From: Escherichia phage PH1062
Reading direction: 5' to 3' (one strand)
DNA length: 49,857 bases
Sequence record: OQ680139.1
The number at the start of each line of letters is the position of its first letter. Position 1 is the first letter of the stretch. A program made the position numbers and the translations under genes. Below, piece after piece: positions 22,294 through 42,047 of the stretch. The notes below the pieces were generated by a model, which worked only from the letters and a program-made list of their open reading frames with translations, was not told the origin of the DNA and did not search any database.

Positions 22294-22339
22294 ACTATAA
22301 CAAAACCCGCCGGAGCGGGTTTAGCAATTCGTGCTATTT
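22294..22339 (-). promoter_or_regulatory. Family promoter B: element, hairpin spacer, TATAGT
   Basis: AAATAGCACGAATTGCTAAA; spacer holds CCCGC-tccg-GCGGG plus TTTT; element overlaps the TAA stop of 22338..22955. Confidence 0.55.
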
Positions 22340-25701: not shown

Positions 25702-25897
25702 TGTGGCGCTCCATGTAGTCAGCCATTTTGATAAGGTGCTCACCCATTGCTCGGACAGTAGCCGGATCTTGCATTGGGAATGCTCCAGAGTCGTCGTCAA
25801 TAACGATTTCGACAGTGACGTTATCGCTATTGGTCATCGTGTCAATCCAGCAATCGTCATCGTCCATATCCTGGAAGCGCTTGCGATCGGTAATCAT
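25691..25897 (-). CDS. Small acidic protein, paralog family member 5 (most divergent)
   Basis: 68 aa; C-terminal PATVRAMGEHLIKMADYMERH aligns with the family motif. Confidence 0.5.
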   Translation of the reverse strand: MITDRKRFQDMDDDDCWIDTMTNSDNVTVEIVIDDDSGAFPMQDPATVRAMGEHLIKMADYMERHNEQ

Positions 25898-26118
25898 AAA
25901 ACCCCCTTCTCAGCGCGGTGGGCCGCTTCCATCAGGTGACACGCCAGTTGGCGCGCCTGGTCTGGCGTGTACAGCATGTAAGTGCTTGGGTATGATTCTT
26001 CGTGAGGATTGAAGTCAAGGCGCACCTTGAAAGTCACACGATCATTGCTGTGAATCTTCACAGCCTCAATTTCGGCCTGCTCGTTGTAGTCGTCTGCAAT
26101 GCGCACTTTAGTGCTCAT
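25894..26118 (-). CDS. Small acidic protein, paralog family member 4
   Basis: 74 aa; VRLDFNPHEESYPSTYMLYTPDQARQLACHLMEAAHRAE. Confidence 0.6.
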   Translation of the reverse strand: MSTKVRIADDYNEQAEIEAVKIHSNDRVTFKVRLDFNPHEESYPSTYMLYTPDQARQLACHLMEAAHRAEKGVL

Positions 26119-26157
26119 AAATTACCCCTTAGTTGATTGTTTCACTTCAATGAGTGC

Positions 26158-26202
26158 ACTATAGCAAATGCACTCACGGCAGTTTTAACAAAAAGTGCTA
26201 TT
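26158..26202 (-). promoter_or_regulatory. Family promoter F: element, 19 bp, TATAGT
   Basis: AATAGCACTTTTTGTTAAAA; -10 in loop of TGAGTGCA/TGCACTCA; element contains the TAG stop of 26198..26398. Confidence 0.55.
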
Positions 26203-26398
26203 CTATCACCTTCACTACCTTCTCTTTGCGATACGGTGCGCCGGACTTATGCAGCCAGTAGCGGGCCTGGGTAAGAGTACCCATTTTCTCAACCGTTACC
26301 CACCAGAACCAGGCGACTCGCTTCTGCACGGCGAACCATATGACCGGATCGCTGAAAGCTGTCTCGGTCCTGATCATCACTATGCGATACTTCTTCAT
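26198..26398 (-). CDS. Hypothetical protein
   Basis: 66 aa Trp-rich ORF, start/stop-coupled to neighbours. Confidence 0.4.
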   Translation of the reverse strand: MKKYRIVMIRTETAFSDPVIWFAVQKRVAWFWWVTVEKMGTLTQARYWLHKSGAPYRKEKVVKVIE

Positions 26399-26601
26399 GC
26401 CTGGTCTCTCCCTAGCTGGTTGTTGGCCTTGTTGGCTGCTGACACCAGTGCCGCCGCCATTGCCAGTGCCTGATCTGGAGTTAGAAATACCATCTCATCG
26501 CTAGCCAGGATTTCAACTTGGTCACTCTCCGCGCCTACCTCAAAGTAATCAGCGTAAAGGCATTTTACAAACACTGGAAAATTGATGTTTTTGTTGCTCA
26601 T
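26395..26601 (-). CDS. Small acidic protein, paralog family member 3
   Basis: 68 aa; VEILASDEMVFLTPDQALAMAAALVSAANKA. Confidence 0.55.
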   Translation of the reverse strand: MSNKNINFPVFVKCLYADYFEVGAESDQVEILASDEMVFLTPDQALAMAAALVSAANKANNQLGRDQA

Positions 26602-26708
26602 ATATCACCTCTAAATGGGCCTGTAACGGCCCGTTATTTTACTTACCCAATCGCCCATGCGACTTGAGATTATGTCGGTAGAGCTGCATTACGTGCTCAT
26701 TATGGTGA

Positions 26709-26930
26709 CTACTCATCTGATTCTGCCTCCACTTCCTCAGCCGCCAGGATTAGCGCCGCCGCCAGCTCGCGAGCCTGCTCAGCTGTGTAGGCCATTGCAG
26801 TTCCACCACCATAACGAGAATCTGGTGAAAGGTCCAGGTGAACACGCTTACGCATCTTGCCGAATGGAATCTTAATCACGGATACTTCAGTTTCCTTATC
26901 CCAAGATGAATTGACTCGAATATCTTTCAT
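26709..26930 (-). CDS. Small acidic protein, paralog family member 2
   Basis: 73 aa; VHLDLSPDSRYGGGTAMAYTAEQARELAAALILAAEEVE. Confidence 0.6.
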   Translation of the reverse strand: MKDIRVNSSWDKETEVSVIKIPFGKMRKRVHLDLSPDSRYGGGTAMAYTAEQARELAAALILAAEEVEAESDE

Positions 26931-27139
26931 TGCTTTTCCGCCTCGTCCGCTGCCAGGATTAATGCTGCCGCTAATTTTCTAGCCGCGTCAGGTGAGTATT
27001 GCATCAGTGTCTGGCAATCTCCGTATTCGTCAGGATTGAAGTCTAGGTTAACAACATGCCCGCGAACGGTTCCCATCGTGACGCTGACCTCTGCTTGGTC
27101 AAAGTGAACATCGTCAATACGTACAGCTTCCATAATCAT
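26927..27139 (-). CDS. Small acidic protein, paralog family member 1 (start moved to internal Met)
   Basis: VNLDFNPDEYGDCQTLMQYSPDAARKLAAALILAADEAE; track start 27187 lies inside promoter G, so Met at MIMEAV with AAGAGG RBS is more likely. Confidence 0.55.
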   Translation of the reverse strand: MIMEAVRIDDVHFDQAEVSVTMGTVRGHVVNLDFNPDEYGDCQTLMQYSPDAARKLAAALILAADEAEKQ

Positions 27140-27163
27140 TTCCTCTTTGTTGTCGATATGGTA

Positions 27164-27208
27164 ATCATAGCTGACTACCCCACCCATTGTTTAACAATTC
27201 GTGCTATT
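27164..27208 (-). promoter_or_regulatory. Family promoter G: element, 20 bp, TATGAT
   Basis: AATAGCACGAATTGTTAAA variant. Confidence 0.5.
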
Positions 27209-27398
27209 TGATTCGTCTCATATGCTGCGTTCGGTGTTTTTCCAGATAATCACACCGAGCTTTGGCTATAGAAAAATCACTATACGAACTATCAGTTGAT
27301 GAATGAGTTATGCCAGAAATCATAACTTGAAAAACTCCCTTTAATTGCATCACCCAAAAATCACCATTTTCATATGCTATGTTTGATTTTTTTAACAT
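27204..27398 (-). CDS. Hypothetical protein (start moved to internal Met)
   Basis: Track start (GTG 27458) lies inside promoter H; Met at MLKKSNIAYENGDFW is downstream of the -10. Confidence 0.4.
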   Translation of the reverse strand: MLKKSNIAYENGDFWVMQLKGVFQVMISGITHSSTDSSYSDFSIAKARCDYLEKHRTQHMRRIK

Positions 27399-27435
27399 TT
27401 TATCCACCAATCCAATTCTTGTTTTCGATGTTGTA

Positions 27436-27481
27436 ATTATACCGATTCCTTGCGGCACTGGTTTAGCAATTCGTGCTATTG
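27436..27481 (-). promoter_or_regulatory. Family promoter H: element, 20 bp, TATAAT
   Basis: AATAGCACGAATTGCTAAA; element encodes NSTNC and stop of 27463..27690. Confidence 0.55.
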
Positions 27482-27690
27482 CGAACGATTTCGAATTTAG
27501 CCATTATGACGCCAAGGCTTTTTATCATAAGAGCTTCACCTATCGTCTTCACTATGTACTCATTGCCATCAACCTTGATGTAGTATGAGCCATTAAAGCG
27601 AGTGATTGGCTTAGCCTTGTATATCCCACCATTCACGACTGAAAGGTTGTGGTGATTGGCTTGCCTTACATACACACATTTTATAAGCAT
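27463..27690 (-). CDS. Hypothetical protein
   Basis: 75 aa ending ...NSTNC. Confidence 0.5.
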   Translation of the reverse strand: MLIKCVYVRQANHHNLSVVNGGIYKAKPITRFNGSYYIKVDGNEYIVKTIGEALMIKSLGVIMAKFEIVRNSTNC

Positions 27691-28256
27691 TAATGCTCAC
27701 CATTCAGGAGAGATTTCGCTTTCCGGTAGAACTGGATGGCCTTCTCCACCTCATCGGCATCATAGCCATGAATCATGTCTGAGCTTGCCTGCAATTTGCT
27801 ATGAGATTTGCGCTCAACCGATCTCCATGAGTCGCACCACTTGTGAATGTCTCTCCCATACATGCCCACCAGGTATGGGTGTGCATATATCTTGTCACCA
27901 ATAAGGCAAATGATTCCAGCGTCCTGTAGTGATGGTAGGATGTTGTCAATCAGGTTATTCATTACTCCATTACGCTCGACGAACGGCTGGACCTTTCTGA
28001 TCGCCTCATATGTTGAGCGAACTCCCACAACGCCTTTTCCATTTATCGCTTGCTTCCAGATATTTTCAACCACGACGCATTGTTCACGATTTAGGTTTGC
28101 GCGACGCATAACTTCTACTTCGCACCAGTACTTTTGTGACTGTCGGTATCCGTTAGCATTGATTGCAATTCGTAGTGGTGGAAGCCCATCTTCCGTAGCA
28201 ATCTTCATAATCTGCTCATCTGTCAGCTTCTCTTCGTTAAAATCAAACATCCCCAT
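27690..28256 (-). CDS. Short paralog of the 30528..32111 NTPase (shares its N- and C-terminal domains, lacks the P-loop core)
   Basis: N-terminus MGMFDFNEEKLTDEQIMKIATEDGLPPLRIAINANGYRQSQ and segment INGKGVVGVRSTYEAIRKVQPF...LIGDKIYAHPYLVG match both ends of the 527 aa protein. Confidence 0.6.
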   Translation of the reverse strand: MGMFDFNEEKLTDEQIMKIATEDGLPPLRIAINANGYRQSQKYWCEVEVMRRANLNREQCVVVENIWKQAINGKGVVGVRSTYEAIRKVQPFVERNGVMNNLIDNILPSLQDAGIICLIGDKIYAHPYLVGMYGRDIHKWCDSWRSVERKSHSKLQASSDMIHGYDADEVEKAIQFYRKAKSLLNGEH

Positions 28257-28777
28257 TATTTCGTCTCCCTAATCATTTCCTGGTACATTTTGATTGCCTT
28301 GATGGCTCCTGTAATCTCATCGCCTTCAAACTCAGTCACGGATGGCATCAGCTTGAGTATTTTGACCTTAAAGTCGCTCACGGCCTTCTCTGCAATCTGG
28401 CCGTTTGCCTTCACTCGCTTTCCTGTCTGGATTGCGCCATCAACCAAAGACAGATAAGCACAACGAACCTCTACGTCATCACCGAAATCACCATCCTTAA
28501 TTGAAAGTTTTGCACGAACGTTTGCCGCCTGTATCTCTGGCATCCTGGCTACCGTATTGGCGACATATGACGCCTTCAGCTTTGACATGCTGTATCTGCC
28601 ACCTACATCCAGATCCTCACGACTTATGCCTCCCATATCACTAGATGTGAGGCCGTAAACCTGGCGAGCTATTAGATGGATTGGGACGTGGTAGCTGCGG
28701 TTCTCGGACTTGAGCGCTTGCTCCGCCATGTAGCGGACGACATCGCCCAGGCTTACGTGTTGATTATGATTTGACAT
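28256..28777 (-). CDS. Hypothetical protein, first gene of the leftward operon
   Basis: 173 aa; first ORF downstream of the sigma70-like promoter at 28820-28848. Confidence 0.6.
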   Translation of the reverse strand: MSNHNQHVSLGDVVRYMAEQALKSENRSYHVPIHLIARQVYGLTSSDMGGISREDLDVGGRYSMSKLKASYVANTVARMPEIQAANVRAKLSIKDGDFGDDVEVRCAYLSLVDGAIQTGKRVKANGQIAEKAVSDFKVKILKLMPSVTEFEGDEITGAIKAIKMYQEMIRETK

Positions 28778-28819
28778 AGATATTACTCCTGATTGGTGGT
28801 CTTCGTTAAGATGGGTGCA

Positions 28820-28848
28820 ATACTACCAGTGTGGTTACATGTTATCAA
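28820..28848 (-). promoter_or_regulatory. Sigma70-like early promoter TTGATA-17-TAGTAT (leftward)
   Basis: Hexamers at 17 bp spacing ~45 nt upstream of 28777; spacer carries GTGGTTACATGT, also found at 47464-47475. Confidence 0.5.
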
Positions 28849-29068
28849 GTGTTATTGATGCAAGTGTTCGACTTAGTTACGTTTTGCGACCTCTCGCCCC
28901 AGATATAGCTCAATGTAAAGTCTGCGTATAGTTTGTAGATAAGTATTTTTAGCAAATGGGCCCCTACATGACCTTTTATTCCTACAATGTCGTCATATTC
29001 CTACAGGTGTAGGAAAATATCATAGAAAACTATCGCAATATCACATATCCACTATCTACATTATCTAC

Positions 29069-29145
29069 ATATATATATATTAATAATAATAATATAGATA
29101 AATGGTTATTATATAAGGATATTTTAATGTAACCATGGCGTAATT
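29069..29145. repeat. AT-rich conserved block, copy 1
   Basis: (AT)n, AATAATAATAA, GATATTTTAATGTAAC and GCGTAA in the same order as at 47687-47757. Confidence 0.7.
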
Positions 29146-29410
29146 CAGCGTGATATGCGTACATGATTCCTACGGAGTGCTGGTGTGTCTACATGGCATA
29201 ACATGCATAACGCGTATGCGCTAGAAACGTGTGGCGGGAAAGTCCTACCAGGAGATCAAGGGATCAGATCTCACCCCATCATTCCCCCCATCAATGAATC
29301 ATTGCTCAATTCGCAACAATCGAAAACATCATTGCAAACGATGCAATATTGCTATATGTGCAATAGTGAAGTGAATTATTGCAATAGCTGCAACAATCCA
29401 TAAATCGAAC

Positions 29411-29456
29411 GAATAGCACTTTTTGCTAAAGACATAAATCATCATTCTGGTAATAT
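29411..29456 (+). promoter_or_regulatory. Family promoter I (rightward): element, 20 bp, TAATAT
   Basis: GAATAGCACTTTTTGCTAAA on the plus strand; first rightward-oriented copy after the AT-rich region. Confidence 0.5.
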
Positions 29457-29642
29457 GTATCTCAAGGAAGCAGTGAAGCGAACGCCAAGTAGCTACTTCC
29501 CAGAAGTCGAATCGTCCAGATGAAAAATGCTGGCGAGTGTTGAGAAAGGGCACGTTGAGTCACTTCCGAACAGGTAAACTCCTAGACACCTTCTCCGGCA
29601 GCAAAGTCTGACCGGGTTCTTCGAAAAAGCAGTGAAGGTATT

Positions 29643-29688
29643 GAATAGCACGAAATGTTAAAACAGAAGTGAAGAAAGCAGGTATAGT
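29643..29688 (+). promoter_or_regulatory. Family promoter I2 (rightward): element, 20 bp, TATAGT
   Basis: GAATAGCACGAAATGTTAAAA; 126 nt upstream of 29815. Confidence 0.5.
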
Positions 29689-29814
29689 CAGTACATAGAG
29701 AACGGGGTGGGAAGTAAAGAGCCGAACGGCCTCCTGATGGAACAGGATAACCACTAAAGCAGAGATGACATCAAAGCGAACCTCTAGCAAAGCACAGTAA
29801 ACCATTGACGAGAG

Positions 29815-30039
29815 ATGAAAATGAACCAGGATCTTAATAAAATTGCTTTCAACAATACCATCGCTGACATTGCTGCCAAGGTAGATCTATCCCGCAATCC
29901 CGTTAAGCAGATCGCTTCTGAGTGTGAGTTCTTCGCATCGCAGATTGAAGGTGACGAATACAAGAGAGTGTTTGCAGCCCTAAGTAAATGCAAAACACGC
30001 AAAGCAATGAGTATAATCATCAATAGCACGAATTGCTAA
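29815..30039 (+). CDS. Hypothetical protein
   Basis: 74 aa ending ...NSTNC, the last five codons being the family element. Confidence 0.5.
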   Translation: MKMNQDLNKIAFNNTIADIAAKVDLSRNPVKQIASECEFFASQIEGDEYKRVFAALSKCKTRKAMSIIINSTNC

Positions 30040-30066
30040 AGCCCTTCGGGGCTTTTCCTGTATATT
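30022..30066 (+). promoter_or_regulatory. Family promoter J (rightward): element, terminator-like hairpin spacer, TATATT
   Basis: AATAGCACGAATTGCTAAA; spacer GCCC-ttcg-GGGC plus TTTT; followed by CATCCCATCGAAACGAA; 36 nt to ATG 30103. Confidence 0.55.
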
Positions 30067-30102
30067 CATCCCATCGAAACGAAACACAAAAAGGCAAACA
30101 AA

Positions 30103-30456
30103 ATGACTACTACTATTACTAGAAACTGGATTAGCAACGAAAATGTACTCTATAAAGCTCGCGTTAAAAATGGCGTAGAGCAAATCAAGAAAGATGGAAA
30201 ATGGATTAACCTTGAAGAGCGCGGCAAGTACATCAAGACAAAGACCATTTACTGCACAAAGGTTAATCATCGCTCATCCATTCGTAAGTACTTCACTGAA
30301 GGGAAGCGATATCAAGTGGATCTCCATGCTGGACTTGGGCAGCGCGCTGGATACATTTACGATAAGGAGGGCAGCGCATGGCAGCTATATCGTGACGAAG
30401 ATGTTGGGTTTGTATCACTGTGTGGAACTTATCGCTGGGAAGCTCAGTACAAATAA
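30103..30456 (+). CDS. Hypothetical protein
   Basis: 117 aa. Confidence 0.6.
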   Translation: MTTTITRNWISNENVLYKARVKNGVEQIKKDGKWINLEERGKYIKTKTIYCTKVNHRSSIRKYFTEGKRYQVDLHAGLGQRAGYIYDKEGSAWQLYRDEDVGFVSLCGTYRWEAQYK

Positions 30457-30527
30457 GTAGCATTTTTTGGCAAGCGGTCTTACCATAGGTGCGTTAACAT
30501 TGGCGCACCAACTAAGGAGTTATTTTA

Positions 30528-32111
30528 ATGTTTGATTTCAACGAAGATAAATTGTCAATCGATCAGGTCATGGCTGTAGCCGCTGCCGATAACCTGCCAC
30601 CTCTACGCGTAGCAATCAACGCGAACGGGTACAGGCAAAGCCAGTCATTCTGGAAAGCCCCAACAGAGATTGACTCAGGCGGTGACAAATATCCGGTAAT
30701 TTCACTTGGTAACGATTATGATGTCGTTGGTAAACTGTCAAGCAATGCCGCTCGTTCTGTTCAGTTCCCCGAGTCGTCCGCTTACATGCATTTCCTCGGA
30801 TGCATATCAGCCGCCATGCTGGGCCGATTTACGGTTGAGTATCACGGAACACAACAGCCTACCGCGCTGTACGTCGTAACCAGTCAGCCGCCATCGACGG
30901 GTAAATCAGCCATTAACTCACTTTCGCTGGCCCCGATGATCGCAGAGACTGAGCGACTCAACGAGATCAGAAAGCGTGACCGCAAGAAGATTATGGCTAA
31001 GCTCTCCGCTCTATCCAAGGAGATGAAGCAGGAGAAATCACCATCTGATATGGCGGCTCTGTTTGAGGAGAAAGAGGAGCTTGAAGAAAAACTTGAACGA
31101 CTCTGTGACATCGTTTTCCCCGTATCCGACACCACGCCGGAAGGTCTTGCGCGAATCAACAACCGCCAGGGAAACTTTGCAGTGATCTCGGATGAAGCAA
31201 CGAGCGTGAACTCACTGTTAGGCATGACCTATGGTGACGGCTCAAAGAAAACGAACAGCGAGCTTGTGCTTAAGGCGTGGGATGCTGGTAACGTATCTAT
31301 CGCCCGTGCGAACGCAGACAATAACATGAGCTTCATTGCGATGGGCTGCATATCTGTAATTGCACAGGATGAAACAATCAACGCGATCATGAATGCTGGT
31401 GCGCGTGGTATCGGTGTGTCAGAACGTTTCTTGCTTGTGCGTGAGAAGTCATTCCTTGGCGAGCGTGTATTCGTTGACGAAAAAGGAGAATCAACATACG
31501 AGCCTATTGATGGCGGACTCAAGGCGGACTACTTCCGTCTGGTCCATGAGATCATGAGCGAACACGAAGTCAACCTGACAGTAAGCACGTCGGCGATGAA
31601 ATATCTCAACCGTGCGCGTCAGGATATGGAACCTCACCTTGCGGACGGCGGGAAGTATTCACACACAATGCTTCGCGGCGCGCTGGGTAAGTTCGATAAG
31701 CAGGCTATCAGGATCGCGGCTGTTCTTCACACTGTGCGTAACTGGTTTAATCCCAATGGCGGGAGTCCGCAGAAGTCCAGAGAGATTGAGCTTGACACAA
31801 TGCAGGAAGCGGTAATTATGTTCCAGGAACTGAGTAAGACTTATCTGTCATCTGCAAACGCTGCTGGTCATGCTGGCGACCATGCGGAGATGAATAAGCT
31901 GATCGATATTCTGATCAAGCAAGGTAAGAACGGGAAAGGCGTTGTAGGTGTACGATCCCTATATGAAGCGGCTCGCAAGGTTAAACCCTTTGAAGGGCAA
32001 AGTGGTGTAATGACTCGCATCAAAGATCACCTGATCCCTATGCTTGATGAGAAGAACTACACGTGCCTGATTGGTGATAAAATTTACATTAATCCGCGAC
32101 TGCTGGGGTAA
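30528..32111 (+). CDS. P-loop NTPase of unknown function (putative replication-associated ATPase)
   Basis: 527 aa; Walker A QPPSTGKSA, Walker B-like FAVISDEA; termini shared with 27690..28256. Confidence 0.55.
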   Translation: MFDFNEDKLSIDQVMAVAAADNLPPLRVAINANGYRQSQSFWKAPTEIDSGGDKYPVISLGNDYDVVGKLSSNAARSVQFPESSAYMHFLGCISAAMLGRFTVEYHGTQQPTALYVVTSQPPSTGKSAINSLSLAPMIAETERLNEIRKRDRKKIMAKLSALSKEMKQEKSPSDMAALFEEKEELEEKLERLCDIVFPVSDTTPEGLARINNRQGNFAVISDEATSVNSLLGMTYGDGSKKTNSELVLKAWDAGNVSIARANADNNMSFIAMGCISVIAQDETINAIMNAGARGIGVSERFLLVREKSFLGERVFVDEKGESTYEPIDGGLKADYFRLVHEIMSEHEVNLTVSTSAMKYLNRARQDMEPHLADGGKYSHTMLRGALGKFDKQAIRIAAVLHTVRNWFNPNGGSPQKSREIELDTMQEAVIMFQELSKTYLSSANAAGHAGDHAEMNKLIDILIKQGKNGKGVVGVRSLYEAARKVKPFEGQSGVMTRIKDHLIPMLDEKNYTCLIGDKIYINPRLLG

Positions 32112-32114
32112 ATT

Positions 32115-32489
32115 ATGTTCCTGCTCGACGTGTACAGGTTTTGTGAAGGCTATGAAAAGTTCAACCGTCAGCACCTGGCGGTGTTCATATACAAGCACAG
32201 GGAGTGCGAGCGTCTTGCGAAGGCCGCAGGCGTGACTCCTCGCTATTTCGCATCATCATCATCAAAGGAGTTTATTGCAAGATGTATGGCAGAAGGATAC
32301 CTTGACGGCGTGAACAACTGGTACTGGTCAAAAGGTGCGCAAAAAAGGCCATTTGAATTTCATTTCAGGTGCTATGGCGGTGAGAGCGATCGCTATACAT
32401 GGGAGATGATGAACATAGAGAAGATGAGCGATAATGAGTTATTCGGAAAGCCAGGTAGTAATCGACGCGATAATCAGATGCAGTTCTGA
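32115..32489 (+). CDS. Hypothetical protein
   Basis: 124 aa. Confidence 0.5.
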   Translation: MFLLDVYRFCEGYEKFNRQHLAVFIYKHRECERLAKAAGVTPRYFASSSSKEFIARCMAEGYLDGVNNWYWSKGAQKRPFEFHFRCYGGESDRYTWEMMNIEKMSDNELFGKPGSNRRDNQMQF

Positions 32490-32628
32490 GAATGGTATCA
32501 GTGAGGATGGGCTTAACCAAGCCCTTCTCTCAATGCTTAACTCATCCATGCGCGCCGGGCGACGTGATGAGCATACGTTGTGCAATAATGAAGGTGAATT
32601 GTTGCTGCTGGTGCAAAGATTTGGGTAA
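32434..32628 (+). CDS. Hypothetical protein (overlaps previous ORF; one of the two may be shorter)
   Basis: 64 aa ORF ending before the bidirectional terminator. Confidence 0.3.
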   Translation: MSYSESQVVIDAIIRCSSENGISEDGLNQALLSMLNSSMRAGRRDEHTLCNNEGELLLLVQRFG

Positions 32629-32661
32629 AAAAAGGGAGCCTTTCGGCTCCTTTTATTTTTT
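32627..32661. terminator. Bidirectional intrinsic terminator between the rightward operon and the lysis genes
   Basis: GGGAGCC-tttc-GGCTCC flanked by an A-run and TTTTATTTTTT. Confidence 0.7.
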
Positions 32662-33039
32662 GCGTCGTTCGAGCAAGATTGAAAAAGCAATCATCGCAAT
32701 TCCGATGAACAGGAATACCAGTCCGGCAATCAGATTACCTTTCTCATCGTTCCTGATCTCAATCTTATCAGCGATGATGGTGTCAGCCTTGATGCTTGAG
32801 GTGCTGACAGACTTCCCGTTTGACGTATCAACCTTTCCTACCTTTGAATCTTTGATAGTGGTGTCGTTGTCGTTTGACTTATCCACCTTTCCGGTAACGC
32901 CTACCGTTTGCTTCACGTTCTCAGCCCCAGCCTGCGCACTGATTTCTGGCTTGCTGCCAATTAATCCGGTCAGCGCAGATGTTGCTGAGCACCCAGATAA
33001 AGCCATGCACATTACTAACGCTGCAATCCACTTAAACAT
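32653..33039 (-). CDS. Unimolecular spanin (u-spanin), phage T1 gp11 type
   Basis: 128 aa; N-terminal lipoprotein signal with lipobox LSGC, Thr/Ser/Lys-rich periplasmic region, C-terminal transmembrane helix. Confidence 0.7.
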   Translation of the reverse strand: MFKWIAALVMCMALSGCSATSALTGLIGSKPEISAQAGAENVKQTVGVTGKVDKSNDNDTTIKDSKVGKVDTSNGKSVSTSSIKADTIIADKIEIRNDEKGNLIAGLVFLFIGIAMIAFSILLERRKK

Positions 33040-37832: not shown

Positions 37833-39931
37833 AAGTTACCGTCCAATCCAAAATCCTTACGTGAGATAATATCCTCACCCTTTGCATTCTTGCGGTGAGT
37901 TACCCGCACCGGATGTGCTATGTGGTGAGCATTGTTTAAAATCATTTTCGCACTTCTGTAAGCCGCCATTAATTTTGCGATCTTACTGTCATGCACGTGA
38001 GGCAATACCCCTTTTTGTTTCCATATCGTGTGACATACCTGTGCCGTTGATTGAGGGAAAAACTTCTCATACGCGATGAAGTTAACTCCCACTGAGTCTG
38101 TCAGGTCGTACCGATAAAGAATACCAGTCTGATTACGTGTCAGCGTTACTTCAAAGCTGTTAACTGTGCACCAGTCGTTTTTGGTGTAAGCCTTACCAGT
38201 CAGGTTATCATTGGGATCTTTCAGGCTCACGTCACAGCAACGGCATATTCTCGCCACTACGTCATTCTCAGCGCCACACCCCTTAACGATAACCTCGCCA
38301 GTGCGATCATCAATTTGGTCTTCGCAGATACGAGACTTCCAGAAATACTCACAACGATTGCCATTTTCGTCTCTGTGAATGCAGCGGCGGGCGTAAAAAC
38401 TGTTCTCGGTTCCGCACAGTTCACATTTTTTCGGTTCTTTCTTACCATCAAAGCGGCGCTGGTACTGAGCCTCTTCAAGAATAGGATCGAAGTAAAGCTG
38501 ACCAAGCTCATCCATAGTGCCAGCGAAATCCCATACCAGGTGATCTTCCTTCACCATTCCCATCGCTTTTTGCCACGGCTTAAGCAATCGCATACCTCTA
38601 CCAAGCAACTGTATTAGAAGGGTGAGCGAGCCGATCTTGCGAAGGATTACCGAAAAATCCCAAAACGGAACGTTAACGCCAGTGGTTAGCGCCACCACCT
38701 GGAATATGTATTTAATCTCGCCACGGTTCGCCGCCTCAAGTATCTCTTGTCGTTTTTTGGTGTTCGTCTTCTCCGTGATGATCTCATAGGTAGCGTCAGG
38801 TGGCAGATAGCTCGCTGCCTCCTTGCAGTGTCGCTGACCTGCGCATGTAATCAGTACGCCATTTCGCTTTTTCGCTTCCTCTACGACCATCCCCATGATT
38901 CGCTTGGTCATGCTGGCGTTGTCATGGATTTTCTTCTCCATCGCCTTCATTTCTTTCTGACTGAAGTCAGCTGTTCCATCCTGACTGGACGCCTTGAACT
39001 CATCCAGATCATATCCAGCGTCACCGACACTTCCGAAAATGGTTGGGACAACAGAGCCGAACTCAATCAGGTAGCTGGTGTCGATGTTAGTAACCTGCTC
39101 GCGCCAGAATCCAGGTAGCTTAGGGTTATCAACAACGATCGGGGCCGTTCCTCTGAACTCGGAACCAGTCATGCCGAAGATGCGTAATTCCTTCCCGTTC
39201 TTCTCTTTACAGCGGCGCATCAATTCAGTGATAATGATCGTGTACTGGCTTCGCTTGGTTCCAAGAACAGGCTCGCCAGTCTTCCGGTTTATCAGCAATT
39301 GCTTATCCATCACCTGAACGCCAACCTCTACGCCATCAAGGTATCCATTGGCATAGCCTTCGCTGTTTTTCGGGTATTCAACGAATACACGCTCATCCTT
39401 TTCAGTGAGCATCATTTCAATCGTCTCTTCGTTGTCGATGGCGGCGGCGAGGTCTTCCCAATCCACCTGGTGACATTCATCAATACCCAGAACCATAGGT
39501 GTAAAATCACCAAGCGCCTTAAACAGACCGTTTGCAACCGATCCTTCCGAACCGACAACGATTGGGAAGTAAGCTGATTTTGTGTTCAAGCCAGCACAGT
39601 AAACTGAGTTAGGAACGCCAAAGTTTGAGATCTCCTCACTATCCTGAGCAACAATATCTCCCTGGCGCGCAAGAATCATCATCGACAAGCCCATCTCTTT
39701 GACGCGAGATGCGATCATGGCAAAGCCGATTGTTTTACCTGCCGACACTGACGCCTTAACGATGAATGGATGCTTATAACGAGCAATACGCTTTCCGATC
39801 TCATCATACATCACGCACTGATACTCGTAAGGAACCATATCACCGAACGTGAATTTATCCTGAATCTCTTTAATCTTTTGCGGGCCAAGTTCTTCTATCT
39901 GTTTTTTAATGGATTTAATGCGCATAGCCAT
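37829..39931 (-). CDS. SF2 DNA helicase (DExH) with C-terminal Cys-rich zinc-finger region
   Basis: 700 aa; Walker A VSAGKTIGF, DECH box GIDECHQ, C-terminal Cys clusters. Confidence 0.75.
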   Translation of the reverse strand: MAMRIKSIKKQIEELGPQKIKEIQDKFTFGDMVPYEYQCVMYDEIGKRIARYKHPFIVKASVSAGKTIGFAMIASRVKEMGLSMMILARQGDIVAQDSEEISNFGVPNSVYCAGLNTKSAYFPIVVGSEGSVANGLFKALGDFTPMVLGIDECHQVDWEDLAAAIDNEETIEMMLTEKDERVFVEYPKNSEGYANGYLDGVEVGVQVMDKQLLINRKTGEPVLGTKRSQYTIIITELMRRCKEKNGKELRIFGMTGSEFRGTAPIVVDNPKLPGFWREQVTNIDTSYLIEFGSVVPTIFGSVGDAGYDLDEFKASSQDGTADFSQKEMKAMEKKIHDNASMTKRIMGMVVEEAKKRNGVLITCAGQRHCKEAASYLPPDATYEIITEKTNTKKRQEILEAANRGEIKYIFQVVALTTGVNVPFWDFSVILRKIGSLTLLIQLLGRGMRLLKPWQKAMGMVKEDHLVWDFAGTMDELGQLYFDPILEEAQYQRRFDGKKEPKKCELCGTENSFYARRCIHRDENGNRCEYFWKSRICEDQIDDRTGEVIVKGCGAENDVVARICRCCDVSLKDPNDNLTGKAYTKNDWCTVNSFEVTLTRNQTGILYRYDLTDSVGVNFIAYEKFFPQSTAQVCHTIWKQKGVLPHVHDSKIAKLMAAYRSAKMILNNAHHIAHPVRVTHRKNAKGEDIISRKDFGLDGNL

Positions 39932-41091: not shown

Positions 41092-41121
41092 ATCATACCA
41101 ACCGTAACATGAGATAGTCAA
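41092..41121 (-). promoter_or_regulatory. Sigma70-like promoter TTGACT-18-TATGAT for the HNH gene
   Basis: Hexamers on the minus strand; -35 overlaps the primase start codon region. Confidence 0.45.
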
Positions 41122-42047
41122 TGATGGATATGTATCAAAAAGAGGAAGTTATACCTTACATGAAGGGTCTTTGGAGGGAAGCTCTGCAATCAATATGTGG
41201 CCTTGATAACTCATACTTCACGAAGCGACATGGGCCATGCCCGCATTGCTTTGGAAAGGACCGTTTTCGCTGGACTGACAATATTAACACCCCAGGCGAC
41301 GGCGGCGCGATCTGTAACTCATGCGGAAACGACTCAGGGATCGGTTGGTTGATGAAGTTAACTGGTATGCCATATAGCGAATGCATAAACATCCTGGGGA
41401 GATTTCTTGGAAAGGTTCCGCAGGAATACATTGTCAAGGCGAACAAGAAAGCGCGCAGGACTCCGGTAGCTGGCATCAATGTCATGATGGCAGATCATGA
41501 AGCGGTAATGAAAGTTATGGGGCGCACGGAGAAGCGTGTAAATACGCCACTAAGCATGTTTGAGTCACTGCCTACTGAATCATTCGATGTCGGCGTAAAA
41601 CTTCGTGAGGATGGCGGTGAGAGCGTATTTCACACCATACCGTGTCAACTTGTGCATGAGGATGGTCTTGATGACGAGTTTTGCAATATTTTGATTATTG
41701 ATGAAGAAGGAAGGGAGTCATTTTACGCGAAGAAATACACGAGTTGCTCAGTTGCCGTGACTGGTAAAACTGAAAAGGCGATATACTTATGCCTGAACTG
41801 GATTGATGCTCAGCATATTGCATTTCACACAAAGCAAGAAGTGTGGGCCTGTTTCACCCCTGAAAACCTCGAGATGGTTGCGTACAGATACAAAGGGGAT
41901 CGGGAGGTAATGGTGGCATGCGAACCGTCTGACAAAGAAACTTTGTATATGGCGGATGACCGACAATTAAAAATAATCATCCCGAACCCGGGAGGATACC
42001 GTTCAGGAATGCAAGCCAAGCTGTTCTCAGCAAGCGATCTGCTCTAA
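41121..42047 (+). CDS. DNA primase (zinc-ribbon plus catalytic domain)
   Basis: 308 aa; N-terminal GPCPHCFGKDRFRWTD...AICNSCG zinc-binding motif. Confidence 0.6.
   Translation: MMDMYQKEEVIPYMKGLWREALQSICGLDNSYFTKRHGPCPHCFGKDRFRWTDNINTPGDGGAICNSCGNDSGIGWLMKLTGMPYSECINILGRFLGKVPQEYIVKANKKARRTPVAGINVMMADHEAVMKVMGRTEKRVNTPLSMFESLPTESFDVGVKLREDGGESVFHTIPCQLVHEDGLDDEFCNILIIDEEGRESFYAKKYTSCSVAVTGKTEKAIYLCLNWIDAQHIAFHTKQEVWACFTPENLEMVAYRYKGDREVMVACEPSDKETLYMADDRQLKIIIPNPGGYRSGMQAKLFSASDLL

Follow-up and report, generated by a model that had tools for sequence, protein, structure and literature searches.

The closest described relatives of the proteins studied here are the DUF3987/SF6 replicative helicases, which have an MCM-like fold (Kazlauskas et al. 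2016; PMC4889955); a distant member, the DUF3987 protein AgaPH, is a 5'-3' helicase that binds its own primase-polymerase (PMC11724360). The Rep proteins of the Staphylococcus aureus pathogenicity islands (SaPIs) are MCM-clade self-loading initiator-helicases, whose C-terminal winged helix reads iterons of 5 to 6 nucleotides (nt) flanking an AT-rich origin of replication (ori) (PMC9371898). For the T1-like phages, no origin or initiation mechanism has been defined, and no iterons have been found (PMC11447400). We analyzed Escherichia phage PH1062 (record OQ680139.1), whose 49,857 nt, referred to below as the window, are the essentially complete genome of a T1-like coliphage (Drexlerviridae); the closest records are the Nouzillyvirus-type phages P818, p111, GaoY1-9D, and P817 (92 to 94% identity across positions 27000 to 33000). 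A previous sequence-only reading had claimed two open reading frames (ORFs), one for a full-length P-loop NTPase of 527 amino acids (aa) and the other for a core-less paralog of 188 aa, encoded divergently around an AT-rich control region. Both ORFs are present at the positions given, the first at 30528..32111 on the plus strand and the second, which we refer to as the mini, at 27690..28256 on the minus strand. Alignments, Pfam, PHROG, and hidden Markov models (HMMs) all bore out their relationship: the 188-aa protein is a motor-less paralog of an MCM-like replicative helicase, in which the two end modules are joined directly and the AAA+ core is gone.

Pairwise alignment, suggested as a check in that reading, was run by BLASTP and gave highly significant similarity in two separate, collinear local alignments. 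Helicase residues 1 to 42 matched mini residues 3 to 44 with 29 of 42 positions identical (69%; E value of 8e-20), and helicase residues 436 to 527 matched mini residues 40 to 131 with 41 identities in 92 positions (45%; E value of 3e-23). The PHROG profiles of the two proteins cross-match in the same two-end pattern, and a mini-family HMM, built from 117 family members, matched the helicase ends in six genomes with E values of ~1e-20 and ~1e-23. Helicase residues ~43 to 435, that is, the DUF3987 core with the Walker A motif and the Walker B region, have no counterpart in the mini. The length assigned earlier to the N-terminal shared module (~42 aa) was right, while the C-terminal one is ~90 aa long instead of ~60 aa and the extension of the mini measures 57 aa instead of ~70 aa. 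AlphaFold models, another of the suggested checks, contained the three N-module helices and the winged helix in both proteins. By alignments and models alike, the mini has the binding modules of the full-length protein without its catalytic part.

From its sequence features, the 527-aa protein is an ordinary member of the DUF3987/SF6 MCM-clade helicases, with predicted unwinding activity. It matched Pfam PF13148 (DUF3987) over residues 81 to 430 with 135.8 bits against a gathering score of 27. The Walker A motif PPSTGKS (residues 121 to 127; 30888..30908, plus strand), which is absent from the mini, includes residues invariant in 36 helicases (Q120, P121, P122, G125, K126, and S127), and S221 and E223 are invariant in the Walker B region (SDEA). 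In the model, an MCM-type AAA+ fold leads into a winged helix at the C terminus. The N module (residues 1 to 42; 30528..30653, plus strand), common to both proteins, consists of three short helices (residues 11 to 21, 25 to 33, and 36 to 41) that are alike in the two models, with a predicted local distance difference test (pLDDT) score of ~90. We considered assigning it to a known helix-turn-helix (HTH) family, but Pfam gave no match even at an E value of 10. The C module (residues 436 to 527; 31833..32108, plus strand) comprises the end of the last lid helix and the winged helix (helices 451 to 468, 475 to 482, and 494 to 508; strands 472 to 474, 512 to 515, and 518 to 521). The primase is encoded separately, ~9 kb away (41121..42047), and neither it nor a PriCT domain is fused to the helicase. 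A PDB sequence search gave no significant match for either the helicase or the mini.

In the mini, all on the minus strand, the N module (residues 3 to 44; 28125..28250) runs directly into the C module (residues 40 to 131; 27864..28139), with its own winged helix (helices 57 to 72, 79 to 86, and 98 to 112; strands 76 to 78, 116 to 119, and 122 to 125). The tail starts with residues 132 to 150 (MYGRDIHKWCDSWRSVERK; 27807..27863) and includes a terminal basic amphipathic helix at residues 167 to 184 (EVEKAIQFYRKAKSLLNG; 27705..27758). The AlphaFold2 model had a pLDDT of 83 overall and >90 over residues 10 to 140, right through the module junction, from which we infer a single packed domain made up of the N module and the C-terminal winged helix; in the helicase, the two are probably packed together likewise. 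The terminal helix was predicted at a pLDDT of 66 to 76, and its region carries the near-invariant residues Y165, V170, A173, F176, Y177, R178, K179, K181, L183, L184, and G186. A basic amphipathic end helix was found in every mini subtype, even those with otherwise unrelated tails (EVEKAIEFYRKAKSLLNGK, EEVVQAMELWQLMKKLNKLVK, and DEQIEKLKRKKKYLLTGK), and the divergent subtypes P0352 to P0358 and P0385 end in analogous helices. It is the sole feature common to all minis yet missing from the helicase.

The mini matched phrog_7327, a family without annotated function, with an E value of 7.1e-77 (residues 3 to 187 on profile positions 1 to 179 of 179) but had no match in Pfam. For want of the P-loop ATPase core, it is, in terms of sequence classification, a derivative of the DUF3987/SF6 family and not a member. 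Alignment of 34 family members showed 18 invariant and 24 nearly invariant columns, tail included, with F6, P27, A31, I32, N35, G36, Y37, and W44 invariant in the N module. A large protein database contained >117 full-length clusters (170 to 195 aa, down to 49% identity), nearly all on phage-sized contigs of 45 to 52 kb. The family HMM gave 45 matches among 1.84 billion representative proteins, and all of them were minis, mini fragments, or Drexlerviridae helicases. A fold search of the viral structure library BFVD returned the mini's own family only, and a scan of IMG/VR with a single mini protein found one locus only.

The divergent arrangement was as described earlier. Transcription diverges out of an ORF-poor region of ~1 kb (28778 to 29814), and the mini comes second in the leftward operon, while the helicase lies 1.7 kb into the rightward one, after two small genes. 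The first leftward gene (28256..28777, minus strand) encodes a DUF7174 protein of 173 aa (Pfam PF23796; E value of 6.4e-49). This gene, the mini, and the next ORF are linked by TAATG stop/start overlaps, annotated relatives show a similar DUF7174/mini overlap of 1 or 4 nt, and an AGGGAG Shine-Dalgarno sequence is located 8 nt 5' of the mini ATG. In a consensus scan, a sigma-70-like site that could serve as the promoter of the DUF7174-mini operon was found 43 nt 5' of DUF7174 (28820..28848, minus strand; TTGATA, 17 nt, TAGTAT, with a TG extension), although the regional count of such sites was not above that of shuffled sequences. The mini is a predicted early gene, translationally coupled to DUF7174.

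The tail of the mini is not wholly its own: over its first ~15 to 19 residues, it can be aligned in register with the beginning of the gene that follows the helicase. This gene (32115..32489, plus strand; 124 aa, phrog_2794, "YdbL" in some sources) lies directly 3' of the helicase in six of six loci, as well as in Klebsiella phage PKP126 and Yersinia phage YP10S2, and tblastn alignments of the mini with helicase genes pass the helicase stop codon into it. Mini residues 132 to 150 are in register with residues 1 to 19 of the downstream protein (MFLLDVYRFCEGYEKFNRQ). BLASTP alone gave an E value of 0.1 for this comparison. When the downstream N terminus was fused to the helicase C terminus, the mini-HMM score rose by 11 to 14 bits in seven genomes, a gain equaled by none of 1,000 Met-fixed shuffles (14.3 bits observed versus a maximum of 11.4), and hhalign gave a P value of 0.0085 for a 14-column alignment that begins at residue 1. 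Since the N termini of two unrelated ORFs in the same genome came within 1 bit of this gain, the stretch is a probable, not a proven, short relic of the downstream gene (P of about 0.01). Homology of the whole tail to the downstream protein (AIQFYRK versus AVFIYKH) was considered and discarded: hhalign backed the first 14 columns only, and the mini HMM alone misses the downstream ORF. Beyond the relic, hhalign detected no derivation from this gene.

The mini could thus have originated from a duplicated segment spanning the helicase and the downstream gene, which would have lost codons ~43 to 435 together with the intergenic stop, leaving the downstream-gene relic in the tail; the copy would later have acquired or remodeled the terminal basic helix. 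Neighbor-joining trees of the shared modules, which were noisy, placed all minis beside the window-clade helicase. In five of six loci (32109..32117 in the window, plus the relatives cataloged as L001, L002, L005, and L006), helicase and downstream gene are in the same frame, with TAA ATT ATG between them. A conserved read-through fusion was ruled out because the two genes are in different frames in AHP42, and the shared frame is probably a remnant of tight coupling, not programmed read-through. Microhomology at the deletion junction (SQSFW, SKTYL, and SQKYW) was also sought, and nothing convincing was found at the DNA level. Concerted evolution or gene conversion between each mini and its own helicase was rejected as well, given that their identity is roughly constant across genomes. 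It was 58 to 71% for the N module and 45 to 56% for the C module, with similar values in every genome, a pattern that points to an old duplication and no continuing gene conversion. Only subtype P0352 (AKS96, Sf12, and phiEB49) is unusually helicase-like (71% identity). As a side note on annotation, the phrog_2794 gene is unannotated in BEK6 (L005, ~38121..38456) and 12210I (L006, 32656..32988), where it appears to begin at a GTG right after the helicase stop.

In a comparison of six genomes, which represent three subfamilies or genera, identity was 90 to 100% for the helicase and 44 to 96% for the mini. The ratio of nonsynonymous to synonymous substitution rates (dN/dS) was 0.00 to 0.04 for the helicase and 0.17 to 0.23 (at saturated dS) for the whole mini; it was 0.06 to 0.23 for the N and C modules and up to 0.54 for the tail, the N module having the lowest values of the three parts. 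The mini is therefore under purifying selection but far less constrained than its parent. While the helicase family was present in 906 phage-collection records, the clade at ≥80% identity was found in 144 only. Full-length minis of the window type were found in 104 records and those of the P0352 type in up to 42, and full-length DUF7174 was found in 138; these matching counts indicate that all three mark one clade.

Within this clade, some relatives have lost the mini or carry a truncated one. In Rogue1, a 28-aa remnant (Rogue1_004; L009, 1103..1189; MFDFSEDKLTDEQIEKLKRKKKYLLTGK; labeled in the record as a hypothetical protein similar to rtp2) links 14 residues from the start of a P0352-type mini to 14 from its end, across a DEQI motif present at both places, and is what a deletion has left of the mini. 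In Sd1, the slot is occupied by an unrelated ORF of 67 aa. DUF7174 is retained in both phages. In the 12210I group (Veterinaerplatzvirus; 43 records, all of 44,219 bp and with E. coli DSM 12242 as their single host strain), an in-frame stop at codon 141 shortens the mini (28056..28583 in vB_EcoS-12210I) to 140 aa; similarity to full-length minis runs past this stop, so that the terminal helix is lost. The mini is, then, a lineage-specific, selectively maintained, and dispensable gene.

Between the two operons, positions 28963..29194 contain repeats of YCTACA and TTCCTAC, a palindrome, and an AT run, a combination that makes this segment a candidate origin or control/operator region. There were seven copies of YCTACA in the 250 nt from 28950 to 29200 (0.2 expected), and no other cluster in the genome is as dense. 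Of the seven genomic copies of TTCCTAC, four also fall here, two of them composing the palindrome TTCCTACAggTGTAGGAA (28998..29015), and the AT-only run extends over 28 nt (29069..29096). The layout was kept, at the same distance from DUF7174, in p111, 50EP, AHP42, BEK6, 12210I, Rogue1, and Sd1, with the palindrome arms covarying (TTCTGACAagTGTCAGAA in 12210I and Sd1), and was absent from SECphi27, which carries a different helicase clade. The cluster is ~1.3 kb upstream of the helicase, in the divergent promoter region and not directly downstream of the gene. Because the winged helix of SaPI Rep reads iterons at an AT-rich ori and the T1-like origin is still undefined, we regard the region, by analogy, as a reasonable candidate for the origin and the helicase as a candidate for an initiator-helicase.

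For the function of the mini, a role as regulator or competitor is the leading possibility. The reading that we tentatively prefer, plausible but short of probable, is that the mini is the docking domain of the helicase supplied as a separate early protein, tuning helicase loading as a nonessential competitor or adaptor. On the AAA+ ring of the helicase, N module and winged helix would together make up a single docking domain, and the mini would be the same domain alone, made early from the operon facing the candidate origin. It would bind the docking-domain ligand, be it origin DNA, a partner in loading or priming, or the ring of the helicase itself, and, being incapable of ATP hydrolysis or DNA unwinding, would act as a competitor or adaptor on when and where the helicase loads. 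The terminal helix could give a second contact, through self-association or DUF7174 binding. The original suggestion of an initiator with its regulator or dominant-negative decoy remains plausible in view of the helicase architecture and the repeat cluster; an essential co-initiator role, on the other hand, is unlikely because the mini is dispensable.

Several observations count against the competitor/adaptor role. With the gene deleted in Rogue1, replaced in Sd1, and stop-cut in the 12210I group, any regulatory role must be nonessential, and the repeat cluster persists in the two phages without a mini. The mini evolves 5 to 10 times faster than the helicase, which would also suit an arms race. 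No basic residue is present in the helix at the recognition position of its winged helix (mean charge of -1.5 across the family; the domain overall is net positive, +4.9), and the two winged helices are merely 45% identical, so that the ligand may no longer be shared. A simple model in which the mini binds the iterons is disfavored by the acidic recognition helix, the presence of the cluster where there is no mini, and this low identity.

The rapid evolution, the modular and variable tails, and the patchy presence, with deletion, replacement, and truncation in close relatives, would also be expected of an immune decoy that, made early and in excess, soaks up a host sensor of the helicase N/winged-helix domain or masks the helicase itself. 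The position of the gene, second in an early leftward operon amid many small accessory genes, points the same way. We nevertheless consider this explanation unlikely: PADLOC models gave no relevant match and no similarity to known anti-defense proteins, no paper was found that ties Drexlerviridae helicases to a defense trigger (the single candidate paper on escape mutants in such helicases concerns other phages and genes), and a dN/dS of about 0.2 gives no sign of gene-wide positive selection. The most conserved mini residues are those shared with the helicase, which is compatible with either model. Another doubtful possibility is a neofunctionalized scaffold, which inherited the fold but works outside replication, in host takeover or transcription control, together with DUF7174 and the terminal helix. 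Its translational coupling to DUF7174 and their codistribution (138 records versus about 104 plus 42), the terminal helix present in all mini subtypes and not in the helicase, and the divergence of the winged helices to 45% identity are in its favor. Yet Rogue1 and Sd1 keep DUF7174 in the absence of a mini, and the N module, with the lowest dN/dS of the mini parts, is still 58 to 71% identical to that of the cognate helicase everywhere, even where other parts drift to 44%, which speaks for a constraint that mini and helicase still have in common.

The winged helices of MCM proteins are involved in contacts between subunits and with the loader (MCM/ORC), and the shared modules would be compatible with homotypic contacts, so the mini, confined as it is to one helicase clade, might co-assemble with the helicase hexamer as a stoichiometric subunit needed for normal function. 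Viable phages with the same helicase clade and no mini or a truncated one make this quite improbable, as does the lack of any coevolution signal, with the helicase 90 to 100% conserved versus 44 to 96% for the mini. That the mini is a nonfunctional, decaying remnant of a duplicated helicase gene deserves hardly any credence. It did arise by deletion, and the Rogue1 remnant and the 12210I stop codon show decay, but this is limited to particular lineages; against it stand >117 intact full-length clusters diverged down to 49% identity, a dN/dS well under 1 (0.17 to 0.23 at saturated dS), the conserved start coupling and Shine-Dalgarno sequence, the 18 invariant and 24 nearly invariant columns that extend into the tail, and a confidently modeled compact fold. 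A more speculative version of the regulatory role, which we regard as rather unlikely, is that replication in T1-like phages of this clade starts with a self-loading helicase, its N/winged-helix docking domain recognizing the TTCCTACA/AT-rich region, and that the mini is a trans-acting licensing or anti-licensing factor timing origin firing or else a decoy hiding the docking domain from a host immune sensor.

Other features of the surroundings are recorded here. A scan of 27000 to 33000 against Rfam gave no matches. The first ORF of the rightward operon (29815..30039, plus strand; 74 aa) had a weak, subthreshold match to a winged HTH family (HTH_24; E value of 0.037) and none in PHROG; its product could be a local regulator acting on the neighboring repeats. 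Four tandem small ORFs of 74, 68, 73, and 86 aa (25894..27187, minus strand) are mutual paralogs (31 to 45% identity) with a common C-terminal motif, Y(T/S)P(D/E)QAR.LAAAL(I/V).AA. A 20-nt element, AATAGCACGAATTGCTAAAG, occurs in 11 copies (0 expected; positions 22319, 25373, 27189, 27461, 29412, 29644, 30022, 36088, 37402, 42110, and 47857), mostly co-oriented with local transcription, and corresponds to aaATAGCACnnnTTGnTAAAA, a 21-nt repeat already described in TLS, T1, Rtp, and Rogue1 (PMC11447400). It reads ..N-S-T-N-C-stop and provides the last codons and the stop of the ORFs at 27463..27690 and 29815..30039; some mini-family members also end in STNC via this element.

The helicase-mini pair offers a testable handle on initiation in T1-like phages, consisting of a winged-helix helicase, a natural construct of its probable docking domain kept by phages in about 140 sequenced genomes, and an intervening region of repeats, palindrome, and AT run. 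The mini is a natural domain excision, an internal deletion that keeps both termini, which apparently fold together, and such an excision can show which parts of the helicase form an interaction surface. If it is a competitor or decoy, it would add a new phage means of regulating or protecting the replisome; if it is a licensing factor, it would be a viral, separately encoded analog of winged-helix-mediated control of helicase loading, derived by excision of the motor from a helicase gene.

Among known systems, the DUF3987/SF6 helicases are like the 527-aa protein in Pfam match, Walker A/B motifs, MCM-like AAA+ fold, and winged helix, whereas the mini corresponds to both ends of such a protein but without the ATPase domain that defines the family. 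We found no separately encoded core-less paralog of a DUF3987 helicase in the literature and no description of the mini or DUF7174 in what could be searched. SaPI Rep and PriRep5 resemble the helicase here in having an MCM-clade AAA+ domain and a C-terminal winged helix. However, the SaPI ori is immediately downstream of rep (PMC9371898), while here the cluster, a putative binding site, is ~1.3 kb upstream of the helicase. SaPIs also have no stand-alone winged-helix paralog comparable to the mini. The likeness to the lid and winged helix of ORC/Cdc6 and to the C-terminal winged helix of MCM is one of fold only (7 to 17% identity), and the helices preceding the winged helix of the mini come from the N terminus of its parent and not, as in ORC/Cdc6, from a contiguous AAA+ lid. 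As regards the general logic, the papillomavirus E8^E2 repressor, the Tn5 inhibitor protein (Inh), T7 gp4B, and phiX174 A* are short forms that keep a recognition or oligomerization module and lose the activity, with competition or modulation as the result, and each is a product of the gene for its full-length protein, made through internal starts or splicing. The mini follows the same logic, with putative inhibition of the helicase, but unlike these forms, it is a separate, diverged gene (45 to 69% identity) on the opposite strand, generated by an internal instead of a terminal deletion and provided with an added tail of its own.

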